A stretch of DNA of 12,610 nt from a virus (IMGVR_UViG_3300029060_000171:1-12610); one strand, 5' to 3'. Positions 3,187 to 12,610 are shown, counted from the stretch's first letter. The notes: a model not told the origin generated them from the sequence alone. Translations and numbers: made by a program.

Positions 3187-3368
3187 GAATCCTCCCGGCC
3201 GGGATAATATTGTGAGTAAAATAAGGAGCGGGCTGAAGTCCGGAAGTTACAGGACAATGGCAGAAGAGAGACGACAGCCCGCAATTCGAAAAAGACCGCG
3301 CAGTTGCGCAGCCTTATGAATTCTGGTTAAAATCCATTCGATTATAAAAATGTATATCTCATGCTGTT

Positions 3369-3425
3369 GCCCGAACCCACTCGGGCTTTTTTTTGCCCAC
3401 AAGAAAGCCCCTCCGGAGAGGGGCT
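3369..3425. terminator. pair of opposed hairpins: plus-strand terminator GCCCGA-ACCCAC-TCGGGC + T8 (3369..3394), and an 8-bp perfect hairpin AGCCCCTC-CGGA-GAGGGGCT (3406..3425) that on the minus strand is followed by UUCUUGU
   Basis: Both inverted repeats were read directly. The first is a textbook plus-strand terminator. The second is a possible weaker minus-strand terminator. Located in the tRNA-to-esterase intergenic region. Confidence 0.45.
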
Positions 3426-3639
3426 AAAGCCGCGTATCTGTATCATCATGCACATGATGCCGGGTGCCTCCCGGTGAGTTCAGTATCAGCACCTGAACCC
3501 GCACAGAAAGGATAAGGGGCGGTGACAAAACACCAGTTGCTGATTGCCCCTCCGCACAGGGGGATTCACCATGCCAGTTTCTTTTAACAAACTCCCCGCA
3601 AAACAGACAACTGTCAACCGTCTGAATTGTGAGACATTT

Positions 3640-3678: not shown

Positions 3679-3755
3679 TGGCGCGTTGTACTGGATTCGA
3701 ACCAGTGACCGATTGCTTAGAAGGCAATTGCTCTGTCCGGCTGAGCTAATAACGC
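3679..3755 (-). tRNA. tRNA-Arg (anticodon UCU), CCA encoded
   Basis: Reverse complement folds as a cloverleaf: acceptor GCGTTAT/ACAACGC (one mismatch), D-arm GCTC..GAGC, anticodon stem ATTGC/GCAAT with loop CTTCTAA, T-arm ACTGG-TTCGAAT-CCAGT, then G-CCA. Matches the argO/argN-type rare-codon tRNAs carried next to Q in Stx-like phages. Confidence 0.8.
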
Positions 3756-3768
3756 AGGGTACAGATAA

Positions 3769-3845
3769 TGGACCGCCTTCGGGGACTCGAACCCCGCGCA
3801 ACCAGCTTCGAAGGCTGGCGCTCTTTCCTGATGAGCTAATGGCGG
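3769..3845 (-). tRNA. tRNA-Arg (anticodon UCG), CCA encoded
   Basis: Cloverleaf with anticodon stem CCAGC/GCTGG and loop CTTCGAA, T-arm CGGGG-TTCGAGT-CCCCG, acceptor CCGCCAT/AAGGCGG (one mismatch; unusual C1). The fold was read by hand, so the anticodon call is less certain than for the flanking tRNAs. Confidence 0.65.
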
Positions 3846-3852
3846 TATGTGA

Positions 3853-3928
3853 TGGTGGCCCTTGCTGGATTTGAACCAGCGACCTGGCGATTATGAGTCG
3901 CTCGCTCTCACCACTGAGCTAAAGGGCC
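3853..3928 (-). tRNA. tRNA with CAU anticodon, most likely tRNA-Ile2 (lysidine type, ileX/ileZ-like) rather than tRNA-Met
   Basis: Sequence GGCCCTTTAGCTCAGTGGTGAGAGCGAGCGACTCATAATCGCCAGGTCGCTGGTTCAAATCCAGCAAGGGCCACCA differs at only a handful of positions from E. coli tRNA-Ile2 (ileX) as I recall it. Anticodon loop CTCATAA. Confidence 0.8.
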
Positions 3929-3956: not shown

Positions 3957-4670
3957 TCAATAATCAAGCCCTTGCCTGGATACATATCTGTCTGGCGGGA
4001 AGCCATAATAGCGGTGAAATACAGAAATAAAGTAGGACCTGCTTGAATAACCGCATTTTTCTGCTATAGCCTGTCCATATCCATGCCGGGAACATAACAT
4101 ATTTACAGCAACACGCATCCGCTCTTCCAGCAACAAGCGACTGAACATGCCCCCTTCATTTTTCAGTTTTGTCTTTAACAAACTCTCACTCATATGCAAC
4201 TGTAGAGCAATCGCACCAAGCGTCCAGCTTGCTGATATATCTGTCTGAATTATCGCCCTGACTTTGGCACTTATGCTGGATAAACATCCACTTAAAAACA
4301 ATGACATCCGTTCATCTGTTTCAAACAGAGACAGGCAGGCCATCATAAGAAACATATCCGTGGCCTCTCCGGAAAATCCCTGGCTGGTAATTAAAGCCGC
4401 AGCCAACGCAGGATTGTTGGGTTCCAGCAACAGGTAAAGCGGAATGTCAGTCAGACGAGTCCTCGTCAGCTTATGCTGACTTTCCAGATATTGACTTACG
4501 ACGGATTCGCTTATATCGACAATTTTAACTTTGCCATAATGCATAAGGAAAAGCTCCCTGATGCATTTGGTGGCCAGAACAACTGAGCCTGGCTTAAGTG
4601 ACAACGTATCCTTTTCAAGAAAAATATTAATTGGGGAGCAAACCATGATAACTGAACAGACAACAGCCAT
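3957..4670 (-). CDS. AraC/XylS-family transcriptional regulator (237 aa), prophage cargo
   Basis: C-terminal 100 aa carries the two-HTH AraC signature (WTLGAIALQLHMSESLLKTKLK...YGQAIAEKCGYSSRSYFISVFHRYYGFPP). AT-rich codon usage. A perfect TATAAT (minus strand, at 4706..4711) lies about 35 nt upstream of the ATG. Could belong to the prophage-encoded AraC-like regulators reported in EHEC (Psr/PatE type), but I cannot confirm identity. Confidence 0.8.
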   Translation of the reverse strand: MAVVCSVIMVCSPINIFLEKDTLSLKPGSVVLATKCIRELFLMHYGKVKIVDISESVVSQYLESQHKLTRTRLTDIPLYLLLEPNNPALAAALITSQGFSGEATDMFLMMACLSLFETDERMSLFLSGCLSSISAKVRAIIQTDISASWTLGAIALQLHMSESLLKTKLKNEGGMFSRLLLEERMRVAVNMLCSRHGYGQAIAEKCGYSSRSYFISVFHRYYGFPPDRYVSRQGLDY

Positions 4671-4790
4671 TATAATTTTACTTTCATTAGCAATTGGTTA
4701 GCTCAATTATAGCCCCAAAAGGTAAATTATCATCAACACATAAGCAAAGGACTGACAGGTGTCGCCCCCCCACCAGCCGCCCATTCACCA

Positions 4791-4818
4791 CAAATAAAAA
4801 GCCTTCAGGACTGAAGGC
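4791..4818 (-). terminator. intrinsic terminator overlapping the stop codon of the 65-aa ORF (stem GCCTTCA/TGAAGGC followed on the minus strand by UUUUUAUUUG)
   Basis: Perfect 7-8-bp inverted repeat at 4801..4818, with an A-run on the plus strand at 4791..4800 (a U-run on the minus strand). Confidence 0.5.
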
Positions 4819-5002
4819 GTCTGTAACAACCGCACTGATAGTCTGCCAGACCCGCCATAACAAGCTGGGTCAGTATTAACTGGCAGCGTTCGCGTGAAAG
4901 GTAAGTATTCTGCGCAATCTCCCCGACTGTCGCCGGTTCGGTAACGCTTAATTCATCAAACACAACTCTGGCGGTTTCTGTCATATCCTGCTGTTTCAGC
5001 AT
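4805..5002 (-). CDS. small HTH/winged-helix-like protein of unknown function (65 aa)
   Basis: ATG at 5002 with GGAAAGGG about 9 nt upstream. Segment VGEIAQNTYLSRERCQLILTQLVMAGL looks like an HTH recognition helix. Ends in its own terminator. Confidence 0.45.
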   Translation of the reverse strand: MLKQQDMTETARVVFDELSVTEPATVGEIAQNTYLSRERCQLILTQLVMAGLADYQCGCYRRLQS

Positions 5003-5122
5003 GTCTTTTTACCCTTTCCGGTTAACGTGACATACCAATAACTCTTGTCTAAAAAGCCAGCAAGATAAAAAGCCAGTATTCACGACCACCAGCGTGTTTA
5101 CTGTACTGCACCAAGTTTACAG

Positions 5123-5150
5123 GTACAAAAAACCCGCTCAGTGGCGGGTT
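5123..5150 (-). terminator. intrinsic terminator about 130 nt downstream of the 205-aa gene (minus strand: AACCCGC-CACUGA-GCGGGUU then UUUUGU)
   Basis: 7-bp stem read directly at 5131..5150; U-rich tract on the minus strand. Confidence 0.55.
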
Positions 5151-5280
5151 TAAGTTGTGTGGCGAAGTAACCACTCTTAACACACTAATAGCATTTTTGT
5201 TATAACACAAGTAACTCATTCAGTATTTTTAGAATCTTGACTTTCTTAAGCACGGCGAACTCTGAATACCAAACATAAAA

Positions 5281-5898
5281 TCAATTATCTTCCAGGCCGG
5301 ATGCTATCAACGAAAGCCTCTCAAAAAACGCTGTAGCAGCCTTGTCCAAAGTTGAATAAGTACTGTATTCTCCGTGTTCGGGACCAACCACTACCCATGG
5401 TCGTCTTTTTGGGATTCGGGACTTCTCAGAAATCACTGTTCCAGATATACCAATATCAATTGTTACACCTGTTATTATTTTCTCTTCATCTCTTTCCCTG
5501 AACTCAATTGCCATAAATGCCGTTTTTTTTCGTTTCCCGTTTTTAAAAAAATCAAATAAAGCAAAGCGATGCTCATTAAAATCAACACCCCATCGTCCTT
5601 CAGGATAAAGGGCATGAAAGTTGTCATTTACGCTCTGCATCGTCTCATAAGCTTTAACTTCTAAATCTCCATAGTGCATAGATACCGCGCAGGAGTCACT
5701 GGGTAACTGTATTTTCCCAAGATTGAAAACCTTTACTGCTCCAGAACTATGGCATCTTGCCCGCAATTTATCCCCATTTATACTAATCGGAGAAATATTC
5801 CTTAATGTTCCGGGCTGGCTCCCTCCTAAGTAAACGACTGTTAAAGATTGCTTATTTTCAATTGCATCAACTAATACATGCTCTACATTTTTATCCAT
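5281..5898 (-). CDS. hypothetical protein, 205 aa, no recognisable family; AT-rich orphan cargo gene immediately downstream of Q
   Basis: The track ORF 5281..5925 starts at an ATG with no Shine-Dalgarno (it is preceded by CCUCC). The in-frame ATG at 5898..5896 has a GGGAGG Shine-Dalgarno 5 nt upstream, so MDKNVEHVLVDAIENK... is the likely start. Flanked by a 5' hairpin and a 3' terminator. Confidence 0.7.
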   Translation of the reverse strand: MDKNVEHVLVDAIENKQSLTVVYLGGSQPGTLRNISPISINGDKLRARCHSSGAVKVFNLGKIQLPSDSCAVSMHYGDLEVKAYETMQSVNDNFHALYPEGRWGVDFNEHRFALFDFFKNGKRKKTAFMAIEFRERDEEKIITGVTIDIGISGTVISEKSRIPKRRPWVVVGPEHGEYSTYSTLDKAATAFFERLSLIASGLEDN

Positions 5899-5900
5899 AA

Positions 5901-5935
5901 TAACCTCCCAATGAACAGGTATCATCAGGAGGTTA
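5901..5935 (-). promoter_or_regulatory. Shine-Dalgarno-sequestering hairpin in the 5' leader of the 205-aa gene (mRNA: UAACCUCC - 19-nt loop - GGAGGUUA - UU - AUG)
   Basis: Perfect 8-bp complementarity between 5928..5935 and 5901..5908. The downstream arm is the Shine-Dalgarno itself, and the start codon begins 2 nt after the stem. Confidence 0.5.
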
Positions 5936-5973
5936 TAATAAAATATGATTATTTACTTTGATTGAATTTATTA

Positions 5974-6345
5974 CTATATGTAACAATCAATTTCTAAAGA
6001 TACCCCCAACATTGCCAGACAACCGTCAATAAACCCTTCAGCTTTCTGCAGTCTGATAACAACCTGATTAAGTGATATCCCCAGTTTTACCCCCAACACC
6101 CGTAATGTAACCCCATACACATAATACATTTCCAGTAATTCGTATTGATACGGTTCCTTTTTCTTAAGAACTGTCATCGCAGAGCTAATGATCAGGCCAT
6201 CGTCATCGCTACATTGCGGGCGGGATTTTACTTTCGAAGGAATTAATCCCTTAAAACCTGCAGCAACAGATGACCATTCCACATCCTCGTGATTATTTGC
6301 CACCCATGCCCCCCAACGTTCAAGAACCATTTGAATATCACGCAT
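5974..6345 (-). CDS. Q: late-gene antiterminator Q, QuuD/phage-82 type (about 123 aa)
   Basis: N-terminus MRDIQMVLERWGAWVANNHEDVEWSSVAAGFKGL matches my recollection of DLP12 QuuD / Q82-family proteins; the C-terminus is sigma-region-4-like. ATG at 6345 with GGAGAAA Shine-Dalgarno; the track ORF extends to a TTG at 6360. Confidence 0.75.
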   Translation of the reverse strand: MRDIQMVLERWGAWVANNHEDVEWSSVAAGFKGLIPSKVKSRPQCSDDDGLIISSAMTVLKKKEPYQYELLEMYYVYGVTLRVLGVKLGISLNQVVIRLQKAEGFIDGCLAMLGVSLEIDCYI

Positions 6346-8337: not shown

Positions 8338-8733
8338 TTACCGAGTTGCTAATTTGCAACTCGCTTTTTCGTACTTACTGATAGTGATCTCGACCTTCCC
8401 CTCCGGGATAACCGGTCCCCACTCCACCAGCATTCTTTTCACCTGACTGTCGTCTTCCCACACACCCGCGTGGGTCAGGGCGTCAAACAGCGCCTTGTTA
8501 TAGTTGTCCAGATCGCGGATCCGGTTATCCGGAGGAAACAACACGATCTCCACTGAAGCAGGTGCCGACGTTGGTTTCGGCAGACGACGTAACTGCTCAA
8601 CTATTGCTGCACACGCCGCGCTCTGGAATTTTCGCCCCGCCGCGCTTATCAGGCTCTTACCAGCAAACGCCCCTTTGTTGGGGTGTCGCCAGTACGTGTT
8701 CACGCTGGGCGGAAAAGGCAGTATTAGCTTCAT
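8338..8733 (-). CDS. rusA: RusA-family Holliday junction resolvase (131 aa)
   Basis: N-terminus LPFPPSVNTYWRH and central RDLDNYNKALFDALTHAGVWEDDSQV match the RusA signature (PWPPS.N.YYRH ... RDLDN..KA.FDALTKAGFW.DD.QV). ATGA overlap with the upstream gene. Confidence 0.85.
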   Translation of the reverse strand: MKLILPFPPSVNTYWRHPNKGAFAGKSLISAAGRKFQSAACAAIVEQLRRLPKPTSAPASVEIVLFPPDNRIRDLDNYNKALFDALTHAGVWEDDSQVKRMLVEWGPVIPEGKVEITISKYEKASCKLATR

Positions 8734-9056
8734 ACTTTCAGGCCCCTCTCATGTAACCAGTGGGTTGCACGCAGCCTTGCGTTTTCCTCACCGGCAAGCA
8801 GTGCGCGGATAATCCCGACCGCCTCGCTGTCGTCGTCCTTCATCGCAGTATGAAGCGTTATCCCCCGGGCCACGCCACGCTTTATCGTGATGACGCCTTT
8901 TTTCTCCAGTGCGCGAAGATGCTCCACCGCTGCATTCACCGAACGGTATCCCAGCATGGTTGCCACCTCCTGATTGGTTGGCGGGAAGCCACGTTCTTTC
9001 TGATAAGAAATCAGCATATCCAGCACCTGCTGCTGGCATTGAGTTAACGTCGTCAT
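8730..9056 (-). CDS. LexA N-terminal DNA-binding-domain-only protein (108 aa; no S24 peptidase domain)
   Basis: LTQCQQQVLDMLISYQKERGFPPTNQEVATMLGYRSVNAAVEHLRALEKKGVITIKRGVARGITL parallels LexA residues about 1-70 ([55 protein letters not shown]). The protein ends 40 aa later with no Ala-Gly cleavage / Ser-Lys catalytic region. Confidence 0.7.
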   Translation of the reverse strand: MTTLTQCQQQVLDMLISYQKERGFPPTNQEVATMLGYRSVNAAVEHLRALEKKGVITIKRGVARGITLHTAMKDDDSEAVGIIRALLAGEENARLRATHWLHERGLKV

Positions 9057-9706
9057 GCCGCCATCTCCCTGACCAGTTTTTCCGCCTGCTGGCGAACCTG
9101 CGCCAGAAACGCCTCACCACATGCCTCAAGTTCATCGCGCCCTATGTAGCTGATTGCCGGTCCCTTCCAGGTCTTGTCGAAAACAGCAATAGCACCAGCG
9201 AAGAAAGCACCTGTTGGCACCTGCTTTTCGTCTTTCGGGATAAACCAGGCAGGCAGTTCAAAACCAATACGCCCGCGAATAAAAGCAATATGATCTGCAT
9301 CTTCCGGCCACCACACTTCGCTGGTGGCAGCTTTGATCAGGAAAACATAGCGCCCGCCTTTATCACGCATGGCACTGGCATGCTTCATGATGTAACGCAT
9401 GCCTGTGATGTATTGCCCCTCATGCTGACTGGCGCGGCTGTACGGGGGATTACCAAAGGCAGCACCTTTAAGCTCCGCAAGACGTTCAGACCAGTCATGC
9501 GCCAGCGCGTTGTCTTCCGCAGTGTAATAAGCGGCACATTTGGCGTTATCACCATCAGTGAACAGATCCAGAACAAACGGGCCAAACAGGGTGTTAATTC
9601 CCCAGAAAATGTTGTCCGGCGTGCGCCACTGATCGCCCACTTCCTTCAGTTCATGGGCTGGTTTGTTCCGCAGCTCCACCAGCGCCTGGCAATATTTATT
9701 ACTCAT
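9053..9706 (-). CDS. phage-type DNA N6-adenine methyltransferase (Dam family), 217 aa
   Basis: Motif GNPPYS (the NPPY/DPPY catalytic motif) in a protein of the size and position typical of lambdoid nin-region Dam methylases. ATG at 9706 with GGGGG Shine-Dalgarno (the track start at 9739 is a GTG). Confidence 0.85.
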   Translation of the reverse strand: MSNKYCQALVELRNKPAHELKEVGDQWRTPDNIFWGINTLFGPFVLDLFTDGDNAKCAAYYTAEDNALAHDWSERLAELKGAAFGNPPYSRASQHEGQYITGMRYIMKHASAMRDKGGRYVFLIKAATSEVWWPEDADHIAFIRGRIGFELPAWFIPKDEKQVPTGAFFAGAIAVFDKTWKGPAISYIGRDELEACGEAFLAQVRQQAEKLVREMAA

Positions 9707-10200
9707 TAAGCCCCCACGTAATTCCCTGACAGATACCACTCTTCACCCGATGCAGCGCGCTTGCTGCTTTTCCGTAAGCACCGCTCACGATGCGCCAGAA
9801 AATTGTTTCGTTCTGGCTGGGAGTGGCTTTCACGGAATGCCTCCATCCACACCGTTGCAGCTCGACGGAATAAGCCCCTGGACTCCAGTTCTTCCGCCTG
9901 GCGAGTCAGGCACAAAATCACCTGCGGGTCGTTAGTGCCGACACAGAAATTGCGCACAGGTCTGGTTTCACGAACTGGTTGTGGTTCCGGCTCCTGTGCT
10001 CTCTCAGTCAGGCGCGGGAAATGTCTGCGTGTATCTCCTTCACAACGGTGAGCCACACGCCCACTCTGACGTAACTTGCTTGCTGACTGCAGAACGCGCT
10101 GCCGTGAGTAACCTGCAAAAGCATCCGCAATGTCTCCGGAAGTACACCCCGGATGGGCTTCAATGAATTTCTGAACTTCATTCAAAAGACTCATGATCAC
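9706..10200 (-). CDS. PerC-family-like protein (YfdN-like), 164 aa: N-terminal HTH-like region plus C-terminal PerC-like motif
   Basis: C-terminal AEELESRGLFRRAATVWMEAF...ERNNFLAHRERC resembles the PerC/Pch motif (LE..GLWRRAA..W ... RR..C) as I recall it. Same size and Dam-adjacent position as yfdN in CPS-53. Assignment unverified. Confidence 0.55.
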   Translation of the reverse strand: MIMSLLNEVQKFIEAHPGCTSGDIADAFAGYSRQRVLQSASKLRQSGRVAHRCEGDTRRHFPRLTERAQEPEPQPVRETRPVRNFCVGTNDPQVILCLTRQAEELESRGLFRRAATVWMEAFRESHSQPERNNFLAHRERCLRKSSKRAASGEEWYLSGNYVGA

Positions 10201-11015
10201 CCCCTGAATCCTGCCGGGATCTGGCTGTAGTCCACGTTGTCGTAACTGGCTTTGAAGTACGGGTCCTCGCGTCTGGCTGCAGATACCGCAGGAACTTCCC
10301 AGGATTCTTCGAAATGACGATCCGGACCAAAGAACGTGACAGCCTGTTTCACAAATTGTGTGCCGCTGTTACCCATCGCAGATACCCAGCCCGCGTAGCG
10401 TTTCACACCTTCCAGCATGGTTTCGGGTTTTACCCCCTCATTCAAACGGGCTTTCCAGGCTTTGAAGGCTGCAGATTTTGAATTGCCACCAGCACGTTTT
10501 GGATAGGCCAGCCATGCCTGCTCAAACTCCGGAGAGTATTCCGGTCGGTTTGAACGAACTCGCACAGACTCATCAGCAGATGCACCAACAGCTATTGGTT
10601 CATTGACTGGTTCTTTGACTGGTTCAAAAGAGTGACTGGTTCTGGGTGAATCTCCTGCACTACCCCCTGGTGCAACTCCTGCACTACCTGGTGAATTTGC
10701 TGCACCAGATAGTGAATTATTTGCACTACCCCCTAGTGAATCTCCTGCACCATCAAGATGAAGGAGATAGATATTACTTGAGTTACCTTTTTCACCTTTC
10801 CGGGTGACTTTTTTTACCAGCCCGGACTCACAAAGGGCCGCAATATGATTCATCACAGAACGTTTGCTAATCTCGCACTGGTCAGCAATATGCTGGTAGC
10901 TGGGCCAGCACTCACCCTGATCGCTGGCATTATCAGCCAGCTTAATCAGAACCAGTTTTCGCAATGGATTTCCCACTCGAATTTTCATCGCTTTAACCAT
11001 CAACTCCATACTCAT
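10197..11015 (-). CDS. replication initiator / replisome organizer (lambda O-like: N-terminal HTH domain, low-complexity linker encoded by iterons, conserved C-terminal domain), 272 aa
   Basis: N-terminal LRKLVLIKLADNASDQGECWPSYQHIADQCEISKRSVMNHIAALCESGLV is replisome-organizer HTH-like. C-terminal PEFEQAWLAYPKRAGGNSKSAAFKAWKARL is like the conserved phage replication-protein C-terminus. The central Gly/Ser/Ala/Pro linker is encoded by direct repeats. GGAGGTG Shine-Dalgarno. Confidence 0.75.
   Translation of the reverse strand: MSMELMVKAMKIRVGNPLRKLVLIKLADNASDQGECWPSYQHIADQCEISKRSVMNHIAALCESGLVKKVTRKGEKGNSSNIYLLHLDGAGDSLGGSANNSLSGAANSPGSAGVAPGGSAGDSPRTSHSFEPVKEPVNEPIAVGASADESVRVRSNRPEYSPEFEQAWLAYPKRAGGNSKSAAFKAWKARLNEGVKPETMLEGVKRYAGWVSAMGNSGTQFVKQAVTFFGPDRHFEESWEVPAVSAARREDPYFKASYDNVDYSQIPAGFRG
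10603..10757. repeat. putative origin of replication: five 21-25-bp iterons with internal dyad GTGAA/GTGCA-N5-TGCAC (10646..10757) plus three TGACTGGTTC repeats (10603..10642), all inside the O-like gene
   Basis: Direct repeats read from the sequence: GTGAATCTCCTGCACTACCCCCTG / GTGCAACTCCTGCACTACCTG / GTGAATTTGCTGCACCAGATA / GTGAATTATTTGCACTACCCCCTA / GTGAATCTCCTGCACCATCAA. AT-rich stretches flank the array. Analogous to ori-lambda iterons within O. Confidence 0.6.
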
Positions 11016-11236
11016 GCAGCACCTCCGAGATGCTTCATGTTTTTTCCGGAGCGAAAGGCTATAAGCGGCATACTGACGCGGTAATTACGGCCCAGCGGTT
11101 CACAAATCACCTTCTGACATTCACGGTCAACCAGGCTAACACGTAGAACATGCCCTGCAGGCGTGGTGTACCACTGACCCGGACGAGGACAACGGAAAGT
11201 ATGATTGGTAAACCGTTTGAAAATATTCCGGATCAT
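11012..11236 (-). CDS. small Cys-containing protein of unknown function (74 aa)
   Basis: ATG overlaps the Rha stop (ATGA) and is preceded by AGGGGG Shine-Dalgarno. Its stop overlaps the O-like start. A diverged homolog is encoded upstream at 11779..12105 (shared MIRNIFK.FTN and PG..YT..A). Confidence 0.45.
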   Translation of the reverse strand: MIRNIFKRFTNHTFRCPRPGQWYTTPAGHVLRVSLVDRECQKVICEPLGRNYRVSMPLIAFRSGKNMKHLGGAA

Positions 11237-12105
11237 TTACGCCCCCTTACCTCTGAAGGGTTCAGCGACAAATTTATGAGACTGGCCAGTAGCGCCGCGT
11301 CGTTGATGCGGTCATACAGACTTACAGCCAGCGGGGATTCGGCTTTTGCCAACATGGGATAAAGCTGCTGCAGCCAGACCTTGTGGATTACCGACAGGTG
11401 GGAGTAAAGCACGCTGGCGTTATCTGCGGCATCGCTCAGCGTGGATGGCTTTGAAAGCAGTTTTTCCATCTGGTTAAAGGCATTGATGTATGCCTCTTTG
11501 AACCGGGCAGCACGTTTACCCGTGAAACCCATAGCAAGAAACGCAAAGCCGTCGCGGGTTATTTGATAGCAAGGTAGTTTGCGGCCTGTGCAATCGGTGT
11601 AATCACTCACCGAAAAATTGCGGGCAGTGAATGATGCAGAGCATTCAAGCGTGCGGATCTTTTTCAGTACATCGTCATGACGTTTGGAGAAGAAGTTGGC
11701 AACAGCCAGGGATGAAGTAACAGCCTGACCATCAACGATGGCAATTTCAGGTTGAGTGAGGGTTGGGATCGTAGCCATGATGGCAGCCTCTTTGGTGATT
11801 TTTAATAACTCACCACCAAGGCTTTCCACGACCTTATTGGTGGTGAGACGTACAGGGGTGGAAATACCGGTCACCAAAGAACCCGGCCCAACCGAAGTTG
11901 GCCCTGCACGCCCCACCATAATTTGGGCGTAACGATGCTCATGACACGAAAAAACCGCATGAGCGCGGTTGTGCTCTATATTGAATTTCGGGTTTCCACG
12001 CCCGGCACCCGCTTTATAAGGTGCCTGAACAGTGTAACGTCCCGGAATTGCAGAATCAATATGCTGGTGGCGATTGGTAAACAGTTTGAAAATATTCCGG
12101 ATCAT
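11233..12105 (-). CDS. rha: Rha-family phage regulatory protein. The Rha domain is 11233..11778 (181 aa, own AAAGAGG Shine-Dalgarno and ATG at 11778); the ORF continues in frame upstream to an ATG at 12105, adding 109 aa homologous to the 74-aa small ORF.
   Basis: TSSLAVANFFSKRHDDVLKKIRTLE ... GRKLPCYQITRDGFAFLAMGFTGKRAARFKEAYINAFNQME is the Phage_pRha signature. Whether the product is a 290-aa fusion or two proteins cannot be decided from sequence. Confidence 0.7.
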   Translation of the reverse strand: MIRNIFKLFTNRHQHIDSAIPGRYTVQAPYKAGAGRGNPKFNIEHNRAHAVFSCHEHRYAQIMVGRAGPTSVGPGSLVTGISTPVRLTTNKVVESLGGELLKITKEAAIMATIPTLTQPEIAIVDGQAVTSSLAVANFFSKRHDDVLKKIRTLECSASFTARNFSVSDYTDCTGRKLPCYQITRDGFAFLAMGFTGKRAARFKEAYINAFNQMEKLLSKPSTLSDAADNASVLYSHLSVIHKVWLQQLYPMLAKAESPLAVSLYDRINDAALLASLINLSLNPSEVRGRK

Positions 12106-12610
12106 TTACGCCCCCTTACCTCTGAAGGATTCAGCGACAAATTTATGAGGCAGGCCAGCGCCGAAGCATCATTAATATAGTCATACAAGCTAACAGCCAG
12201 CGGAGATTCGGCTTTTGCCAACATAGGATAAAGCTGCTGCAGCCAGACCTGATGAATTGATGAAATGTAGGAATAGAGAACGCTGGCGTTATGTGCAACG
12301 TCGCTCGGTACAGCGGGCTTTGAAAGCTGTTTCTCCATCTGGTTAAAGGCATTGATGTATGCCTCTTTGAACCGGGCAGCACGTTTCCCCGTGAAGCCCA
12401 TGGCAAGAAACGCAAAACCGTCGCGGGTGATTTGGTAACAAGGGAGTTTGCGGCCTGATGCGTCGGTGTATTCACTTAACACAAAATTGTGTTCAGTAAA
12501 TTCAGCGGAACATTCGAGGTTTCTAATTCTATCTAAAACCCGCTCATGCCGTTTAGTAAAGTAATTAGCTACTGCAAGAGATGTGGTGACAACGCGACCA
12601 TTGATAATCG
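12073..12610 (-). repeat. second copy of a tandem paralogous duplication of about 868 bp (first copy about 11205..11778): Rha gene 3' portion plus the start of the following small ORF
   Basis: The two copies align throughout with frequent substitutions. They include identical runs such as CTGGTTAAAGGCATTGATGTATGCCTCTTTGAACCGGGCAGCACGTTT and the junction GTTTGAAAATATTCCGGATCATTTACGCCCCCTTACCTCTGAAGG. Confidence 0.7.
12102..12610 (-). CDS. rha: Rha-family phage regulatory protein, paralog 2, N-terminus outside window
   Basis: Frame is open from the window edge; translation ...TTSLAVANYFTKRHERVLDRIRNLECSAEFTEHNFVLSEYTDASGRKLPCYQITRDGFAFLAMGFTGKRAARFKEAYINAFNQMEK... is a diverged paralog of the first Rha protein. 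The track start at 12482 is a GTG inside the real ORF. Confidence 0.7.
   Translation of the reverse strand, partial: IINGRVVTTSLAVANYFTKRHERVLDRIRNLECSAEFTEHNFVLSEYTDASGRKLPCYQITRDGFAFLAMGFTGKRAARFKEAYINAFNQMEKQLSKPAVPSDVAHNASVLYSYISSIHQVWLQQLYPMLAKAESPLAVSLYDYINDASALACLINLSLNPSEVRGRK

Follow-up and report, generated by a model that had tools for sequence, protein, structure and literature searches.

What can a gene do for a lambdoid prophage when it is lodged directly behind the antiterminator gene Q, and the ribosome-binding site in front of it is closed off by a hairpin? The question is raised by a gene of 205 codons in IMGVR_UViG_3300029060_000171, a stretch of 12,610 nucleotides (nt; the window, below) that represents an Escherichia coli lambdoid prophage. 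The answer put forward here, to which we give an even chance of being right from what sequence and predicted structure suggest, is that the product may be a two-domain, non-enzymatic accessory protein which would bind or sense single-stranded DNA (ssDNA) or RNA in phage–host conflict, and that the hairpin would limit its translation. An earlier note on this DNA had placed an open reading frame of 205 amino acids (aa) immediately after Q; it is present there on the minus strand, starting 75 nt downstream of a Q gene of the PF06530 type. The features on which the protein part of the argument turns are the following:

5281–5898, minus strand: coding sequence (CDS) of the 205-aa protein (MDKNVEHV...), with the ATG at 5898 and the stop codon TGA at 5281–5283
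5974–6345, minus strand: Q antiterminator gene, PF06530 type (Pfam E = 1.5e-47)
5704–5898, minus strand: WYL domain (Sm-like SH3 β-barrel), codons 1–65, with the motif YxGGSxPGxxR
5284–5646, minus strand: α-β-α domain, codons 85–205, family-specific, with the motifs FKNGK and RPW

The same 618-nt CDS is annotated by RefSeq in E. coli S88 as WP_000360285.1, and the product name varies among records between “hypothetical protein” and “WYL domain-containing protein”; the gene, called the WYL gene below, is already annotated at domain level. It had been described as an orphan matching no family, a view that does not survive comparison with phage protein families, as phrog_8498 aligns over all 205 positions (E = 2.9e-126). 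When clusters of 50% identity are searched with a family profile built from five homologues, 954 of their representatives match at E ≤ 1e-3, 191 of them at E ≤ 1e-30, and nearly all of the 954 are stand-alone proteins of 187–226 aa. The protein looks orphan-like because a word-indexed search missed most of the homologues, recovering only nine. That its function is undescribed, as the note supposed, does hold: none of the searched papers cites the accessions of the gene, and among the PADLOC-DB 2.0 defence models only two generic cas-associated WYL-domain models match, weakly (E = 1.4e-3 and 6.6e-3). Beyond weak WYL matches no functional family is found in Pfam, NCBIfam, or PADLOC, and Foldseek returns nothing at E ≤ 1e-3 from the viral structures of BFVD. 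Of the fused homologues (P0068, P0090, and others) one has a zinc ribbon, which is uninformative, and nothing further came to light; literature searches did not find a phage-encoded WYL protein devoid of a helix-turn-helix (HTH). The family represents an uncharacterised architecture, a WYL domain without an HTH joined to a family-specific C-terminal domain.

The WYL/SH3-like pattern that had been suggested for the N-terminal part is supported by the match of the family profile to Caulobacter DriD, by the Pfam matches of homologues, and by structure comparison. The predicted domain has the five-stranded Sm-like/SH3 β-barrel fold of WYL (PF13280). Residue conservation and Pfam matches were tallied over 96 homologues, of which 35 match the Pfam WYL model at E ≤ 0.01, the best at 4.8e-8. 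A profile of the 96 sequences matches DriD with E = 9e-5, the segment YhGGSqpGavReIaP being aligned to YEGGSTPGRTREVTP, so placed that Y23, S27, and R33 fall on DriD residues Tyr168, Ser172, and Arg178. Y23, R33, and also K56 are invariant, S27 nearly so. In DriD the three residues form hydrogen bonds with the backbone phosphates of ssDNA, and activation is abolished by the substitution Y168A or by R176A-R178A (PMC9186387). The WYL domain of the phage-borne protein thus probably binds single-stranded nucleic acid. Neither Pfam nor NCBIfam matches an HTH in the protein, and with the WYL domain starting at about residue 8 of the 205 there is no space for one.

The C-terminal module of DriD of Caulobacter crescentus (PDB 7TZV, 7U02, and 8TP8) is the best match to the protein in both sequence and structure. 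The two have in common the WYL barrel with its YxGGSxPGxxR motif, as well as a similar size, the DriD construct comprising about 200 aa. DriD, however, is a transcription activator with an N-terminal winged HTH (wHTH), a three-helix bundle, and a WCX dimerisation domain, whereas the phage-borne protein has no HTH and its C-terminal domain does not superpose on the WCX of DriD, since only 71–96 residues align. The class A WYL transcription factors (DriD, CapW, BrxR, PafBC) are distinguished by an N-terminal wHTH and a WCX domain, and neither is present here. CapW and BrxR are DNA-binding repressors of the wHTH-WYL-WCX type that control CBASS and BREX, respectively, and are encoded beside the operon under their control; the family described here differs from them in lacking both a DNA-binding domain and a constant neighbour. 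Two further WYL proteins differ in another way: WYL1, which contains a ribbon-helix-helix domain, is an accessory that acts together with Cas13d, and the PIF1 WYL protein is a helicase; neither has the C-terminal domain of this family. The WYL proteins that have been studied well are, to our knowledge, all transcription factors or enzyme accessories.

The C-terminal domain is reached through a linker (residues 66–84) of low model confidence. Residues 85–205 are predicted to fold as a helix, five strands, and a helix, with a low-confidence insertion at about 134–167, and the conserved residues are W103, K119, G121, P167, A187, and F191. A profile of this domain alone retrieves only proteins of the same two-domain architecture, and a profile search of the PDB with it yields only 1YLX, a structural-genomics protein, at E = 0.22. 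In Pfam, one of the 96 members is a marginal match to a YutD-like family, and scans of 33 members gave no family in common. Among the 96 homologues, full or near-full invariance is confined to residues of the types Y, G, S, R, P, A, K, F, and W, and nowhere in the protein does it extend to an Asp, Glu, His, or Cys. Because no residue of catalytic type is conserved, the protein is taken here to be a binder rather than an enzyme, and the toxin-like enzyme that had been considered appears unlikely.

Within E. coli the gene is rare and occurs in two allelic forms. A survey of 5426 complete genomes found it in 74, with allele 1 in 52 and allele 2 in 22; in 72 the coverage was at least 80%. The alleles are 77% identical in nucleotides and 71% in amino acids, and allele 2 occupies the same slot behind a Q gene that is 85% identical. 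The 3' half of Q, which encodes the DNA-binding part, is found at a coverage of at least 80% in 74 genomes with the same split of 52 and 22, the two tallies being compared as counts and not genome by genome. Between the alleles (loci L023 and L024) the synonymous divergence dS is 0.81 for the WYL gene and 0.80 for Q, against 0.12 for the upstream DUF968 gene and 0.15–0.22 for the downstream gene of 65 aa. Q, the WYL gene, and the DNA between it and the end of the terminator thus form one old, co-diverged block with recently exchanged flanks. The ratio of nonsynonymous to synonymous divergence (dN/dS) is 0.23 for the WYL gene and 0.10 for Q; the protein is under purifying selection, although it evolves faster than Q. 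The marked AT-richness that had been ascribed to the gene relative to its surroundings stands only on one side: at 38–41% GC it is poorer than the DUF968 gene (53–59%), but Q (34–43%) and the downstream genes (40–47%) are likewise AT-rich.

The gene had been assigned to the cargo position of Shiga toxin (Stx) phages, and this is borne out by allele 2, which in E. coli O113:H21 FWSEC0010 (L024) lies between Q and stx2a, in the order Q, WYL gene, 65-aa gene, DNA methyltransferase gene, tRNA genes, stx2AB. Strains of serotype O104:H21 also carry allele 2, and the gene thus belongs to what is commonly termed the “pR' region” of some Stx2a phages. The view of a variable cargo slot after Q is upheld as well, its contents differing among related prophages. 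Between Q and the conserved leader the slot is empty in one (L002) and holds a gene for a 148-aa protein on the opposite strand in two others (L003 and L004), in which a clear terminator hairpin stands at the junction of Q and the cargo; in phage Ayreon and in Stx2c phages it is filled with other small genes. Examined as a moron, the WYL gene has no consensus promoter upstream, only a −10-like TATTAT/TATAAT, and the module to which the downstream terminator belongs also exists without the gene. A functional coupling with the 65-aa wHTH gene was considered and rejected, as more than 3000 E. coli records have the latter, almost all without the WYL gene.

The second half of the proposal concerns the RNA, and depends on two features in front of the start codon:

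5900–5936, minus strand: anti-Shine-Dalgarno (anti-SD) hairpin, with the 5' arm at 5936–5922 (AUAACCUCCUGAUGA), the loop at 5921–5915, and the 3' arm at 5914–5900 (UCAUUGGGAGGUUAU)
5904–5909, minus strand: Shine-Dalgarno (SD) sequence GGGAGG, 5 nt before the ATG and wholly within the 3' arm

Sequestration of the SD sequence, claimed in the earlier note, is confirmed by folding and by the presence of the hairpin in the leader of the second allele as well. The pairing is as had been described, GGGAGG being fully paired and the AUG lying 2 nt past the stem, but the dimensions are not: instead of 8 base pairs (bp) and a loop of 19 nt, the hairpin has 15 bp, including two G-U pairs, and a loop of 7 nt. 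Its 5' arm holds ACCUCCU, the core of the 3' end of 16S rRNA (the anti-SD), which pairs with the SD sequence. An alternative in-frame ATG at 5925, which would give a protein of 214 aa, lacks an SD sequence and lies inside the stem. The isolated hairpin has a predicted energy of −25.0 kcal/mol at 25 °C, −20.0 at 37 °C, and −17.8 at 42 °C; within a 96-nt context the value is −23.3 kcal/mol (z = −3.2), and one of 200 shuffled sequences is as stable. In silico the SD sequence is paired with a probability of 0.999 at 37 °C, and its pairing stays above 98% over the range 25–60 °C. An RNA thermometer would open its SD at about 30–42 °C, which this hairpin does not do in silico, and the thermosensor that had been suggested is thus unlikely. 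The arrangement resembles SD-sequestering operators, namely riboswitch platforms and RNA thermometers, in placing an anti-SD-like 5' arm on an SD sequence directly before the AUG. It differs from them in that Rfam, searched over the gene, the hairpin, and the Q–gene junction (5281–5973), gave no family at E ≤ 1 and no aptamer or alternative fold was detected there, and in that the stem is far more stable than those of known thermometers.

Allele 2 differs from allele 1 in four one-sided changes compatible with pairing (U-G to U-A, G-U to G-C, C-G to U-G, and A-U to G-U), in one broken stem pair (A-U to A-G), and at two loop positions. Three variants of allele 1 were met in viral contigs, one with G-U changed to G-C, one with an added 16th pair, and one in which a C-G pair is broken and the SD sequence weakened. 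By formal count 93.8% of the alignment cells are paired, and three pairs have unpaired cells in some rows, one of the three being the optional 16th pair. The hairpin thus appears conserved and tolerated; covariation does not prove the structure. Just upstream, at 5940–5935 on the minus strand, lies the −10-like TATTAT, which reads TACAGT in allele 2. Of about 50 copies of allele 1 in viral contigs, 12 (L030, L034–L036, and others) have A instead of T at 5937, which makes the element a perfect TATAAT and at the same time the stem 16 bp long. A transcript started from TATTAT would begin near 5928, inside the 5' arm, and in an RNA shortened at about this point the AGG core of the SD is mostly unpaired in silico. 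Two side observations concern the same sequence. On the plus strand, inside the hairpin (5912–5939), there is a promoter-like TGAACA-N16-TATAAT with 10 of 12 matches, directed antisense toward the 3' end of Q and in this reminiscent of lambda paQ. One IMG/VR contig (L043) diverges within the SD sequence, at the equivalent of about 5906, into GGTGATGCTGCCAACTTACTGATTTAGTGTATGATG, which resembles an IS1 end; this would mean an insertion that knocked out the ribosome-binding site.

When the gene would be transcribed depends on the position of the late promoter PR' and its terminator tR', for which the candidates lie downstream of the gene:

5199–5207, minus strand: candidate extended −10 of PR', TGTTATAAC, proposed from alignments
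around 5199–5207, minus strand: 17-nt island TTGTGTTATAACAAAAA, containing TGnTATAAC and identical in both alleles
5127–5181, minus strand: conserved leader GTTAAGAGTGGTTAC... with an intrinsic terminator (stem 5150–5131, T-run to 5127), the probable PR' leader and tR'

The flank around the island is only about 50–60% identical between the alleles, and phages with other types of Q have a different sequence at its position and share the leader and terminator. Q, PR', and tR' in that order are the textbook arrangement, as seen in L002, where about 46 nt separate the Q stop codon from the conserved leader with a canonical terminator. The annotation of phage Ayreon has a terminator downstream of Q, about 95 nt beyond the end of that gene. 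A scan for sigma-70 promoters gave no good site in the 75 nt that separate the WYL gene from Q, and StxS-type leaders are not present in the window. PR', leader, and tR' are thus probably located downstream of the WYL gene, at about 5207–5127, and the gene itself between Q and PR'. A gene on the opposite strand with a terminator of its own, such as that in L003 and L004, fits a gap between Q and PR' and would be awkward in a late operon. Transcription from the late promoter, which the note had thought probable, is on this comparison probably wrong. Nor does the gene have a 3' terminator of its own, as had been stated: the nearest one (5150–5127) is about 130 nt downstream and is part of the leader/terminator module, which is common to many lambdoid phages that have no WYL gene. 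The proposed arrangement would account for the matching counts of Q and WYL alleles without any functional coupling: recombination that separated Q from its cognate site would kill the phage, and the gene enclosed between them would hitch-hike.

Outside E. coli, about fifteen contexts of the family were examined. In marine prophages the copies are found in the immunity region, in one of them (L014) immediately behind the opening gene of the operon that diverges from cro; at another locus (L020) the family member stands between the two divergent operons of the immunity region. One copy is located beside a Rha gene, after the tail genes (L017), three loci (L080–L082) have copies adjoining terminase, capsid, or integrase genes, another copy lies beside Mu-like/IS21 transposition genes, and two cultured phages carry a copy. 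In two chromosomal islands the neighbours match PADLOC models for a dGTPase, an Old/GajA-like protein, PDC-S31, PDC-S06, and PDC-S73. No gene is a constant neighbour in the contexts examined. An alignment-based genome scan returned 7 loci only, and a viral scan mostly identical E. coli copies. The distribution is that of a mobile single-gene accessory function tied to phage–host conflict.

According to the proposal, the protein would bind ssDNA or single-stranded RNA that arises during phage replication or DNA damage, the basic C-terminal domain probably aiding the binding by the WYL pocket. It would act by binding, sensing, or sequestering, and not by catalysis, in conflicts between phage and host or between phages, its likeliest role being that of a defence-associated sensor or modulator. 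The gene would be reached by delayed-early read-through from the Q operon and not from PR'. On the read-through RNA the hairpin would hold translation very low, and appreciable synthesis would require that the 5' arm be removed or bypassed, for example by a start site within it. A bypass start from TATTAT/TATAAT is speculative. A narrower scheme, in which translation is gated by the promoter, so that the Q read-through RNA stays silent, a start inside the 5' arm frees the SD sequence, and the HTH-less WYL protein serves as an immunity sensor or sponge only in lysogens, seems to us quite unlikely.

Other readings of the same evidence have to be set beside this one. The protein could be a counter-defence “sponge” made together with Q during lytic growth, which would soak up the ssDNA alarm of BrxR, CapW, or other sensors and so blunt BREX or CBASS. 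The gene does lie on the same strand as Q and immediately after it, with no good promoter between them; the residues that contact ssDNA are retained, the output HTH is missing, no catalytic residues are conserved, and most contexts are phage genomes. For CapW and BrxR, ssDNA is the ligand known to cause derepression (PMC11662680; PMC13622015). A sponge, however, must be abundant, and here the SD sequence is locked in a hairpin of −20 kcal/mol; homologues also reside in chromosomal defence islands and near prophage repressor regions, where genes expressed in lysogens lie, and the literature searches gave no phage-encoded WYL counter-defence protein. We consider the sponge rather unlikely. The reading suggested in the note, that of a late-operon or lysogenic-conversion effector, perhaps a toxin, expressed from PR' and subject to a thermosensor-like or Q-transcript-dependent switch, draws on the position between Q and the tRNA/toxin slot, found in an Stx2a prophage as well, on the sequestered SD sequence, and on the TATTAT (5940–5935), or TATAAT in the 12 viral-contig copies, that could be a promoter directly upstream. 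It is nevertheless very unlikely, given that the sole canonical Q-proximal leader and terminator lie downstream of the gene, that the slot of relatives holds genes on the opposite strand, that the hairpin does not melt at 42–60 °C in silico, and that neither a conserved residue of catalytic type nor a match to a toxin, toxin–antitoxin, or PADLOC family is found.

A further possibility concerns the hairpin and not the protein: it may serve chiefly in transcription, as a weak intrinsic terminator or an insulator closing the early operon after Q, the burial of the SD sequence being a by-product. Its CCUCC/GGAGG core is followed by UUAUUAUG, with five U residues in 8 nt, it stands exactly at the Q–cargo junction, where L003 and L004 have their clear terminator hairpin, and the Ayreon terminator is annotated about 95 nt past the end of Q. 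On the other hand, the terminator scan did not list the hairpin, the U-tract is interrupted, and the U residues of UUAUUAUG belong to the extended stem. Nor does chance placement explain why the 5' arm is the anti-SD heptamer ACCUCCU of 16S rRNA, pairing exactly with the SD sequence. We hold this explanation to be doubtful as the main role; termination and sequestration of the SD sequence are compatible with each other.

The preferred reading, that of a ssDNA- or RNA-binding accessory protein whose translation is limited by the hairpin, has several points weighing against it. The 205-aa protein itself scores 16.5 bits (E = 0.0085) against Pfam WYL and falls short of the gathering cut-off, which is 21.8. 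LRARC stands in place of the classical W-Y-L triplet, so that the ligand could differ from ssDNA; the triplet of DriD is likewise degenerate (NYL). The neighbourhood in defence islands is equally compatible with a role in defence, in its regulation, or in counter-defence. No stem pair shows compensatory changes on both sides among the six distinct hairpin sequences, which are too few for the shuffle control to be informative, and the conservation could partly reflect recent common ancestry. No similar hairpin was found upstream of 13 distant homologues, and it is a trait of the E. coli lineage and not of the WYL family. PR' was placed by comparison, and the promoter scan missed its candidate −10, which is not accompanied by a good −35.

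The rest of the window places the gene in its prophage. The order of elements on the minus strand is as follows:

DUF968 gene, Q antiterminator gene, WYL gene, conserved leader/terminator, 65-aa winged-helix gene
continued: AraC/YdeO-like regulator gene, tRNA-Met, tRNA-Arg, and tRNA-Arg genes, small RNA (sRNA) genes, NanS-type esterase gene, holin gene

The 65-aa winged-helix gene (4805–5002) belongs to phrog_331, and it is the region 4700–5183 that matches the more than 3000 E. coli records. The regulator of the AraC family (3957–4670; 237 aa) belongs to phrog_1450; among NCBIfam models YdeO matches it best (4e-31), with a score far under the cut-off. The tRNA trio (3679–3928, minus strand) is of the type usual in Stx phages, with Met (CAT), Arg (TCG), and Arg (TCT); in RefSeq the first is called a Met tRNA in S88 and an Ile tRNA in related prophages. 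The tRNA cluster of this prophage, which has no stx, is followed closely downstream by the sRNA STnc100 (3395–3603, minus strand; Rfam 130.6 bits) and the anti-sRNAs AsxR/AgvB (3339–3393, plus strand; Rfam 63 and 43 bits). Tandem genes of the Rha family, with near-identical C-terminal halves, occupy 11012–12482; one copy is a pseudogene in S88 according to RefSeq, and an N-terminal motif MIRNIFK(R/L)FTN is repeated at 11236 and 12105. The early region (8730–9056 and 9706–10200) encodes a 108-aa protein of the LexA family, which judging by its length is too short for the LexA cleavage/peptidase domain, and a regulator of the PerC family.

As annotation at domain level existed before, the value of the present analysis is that of a testable hypothesis rather than of a discovery. 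The anti-SD hairpin of −20 kcal/mol offers a clean model for testing by what means a prophage holds the translation of an accessory gene close to nil. If PR' truly lies downstream of the gene, the interval from Q to PR' is itself a cargo slot, the contents of which would be locked to the specificity of Q by its need for a cognate site; as one allele is located between Q and stx2a, this is relevant to the biology of Shiga toxin phages. A widespread phage-borne family that has the residues of an ssDNA pocket, no DNA-binding output, and a private C-terminal domain suggests another way in which the ssDNA alarm may be used or intercepted.

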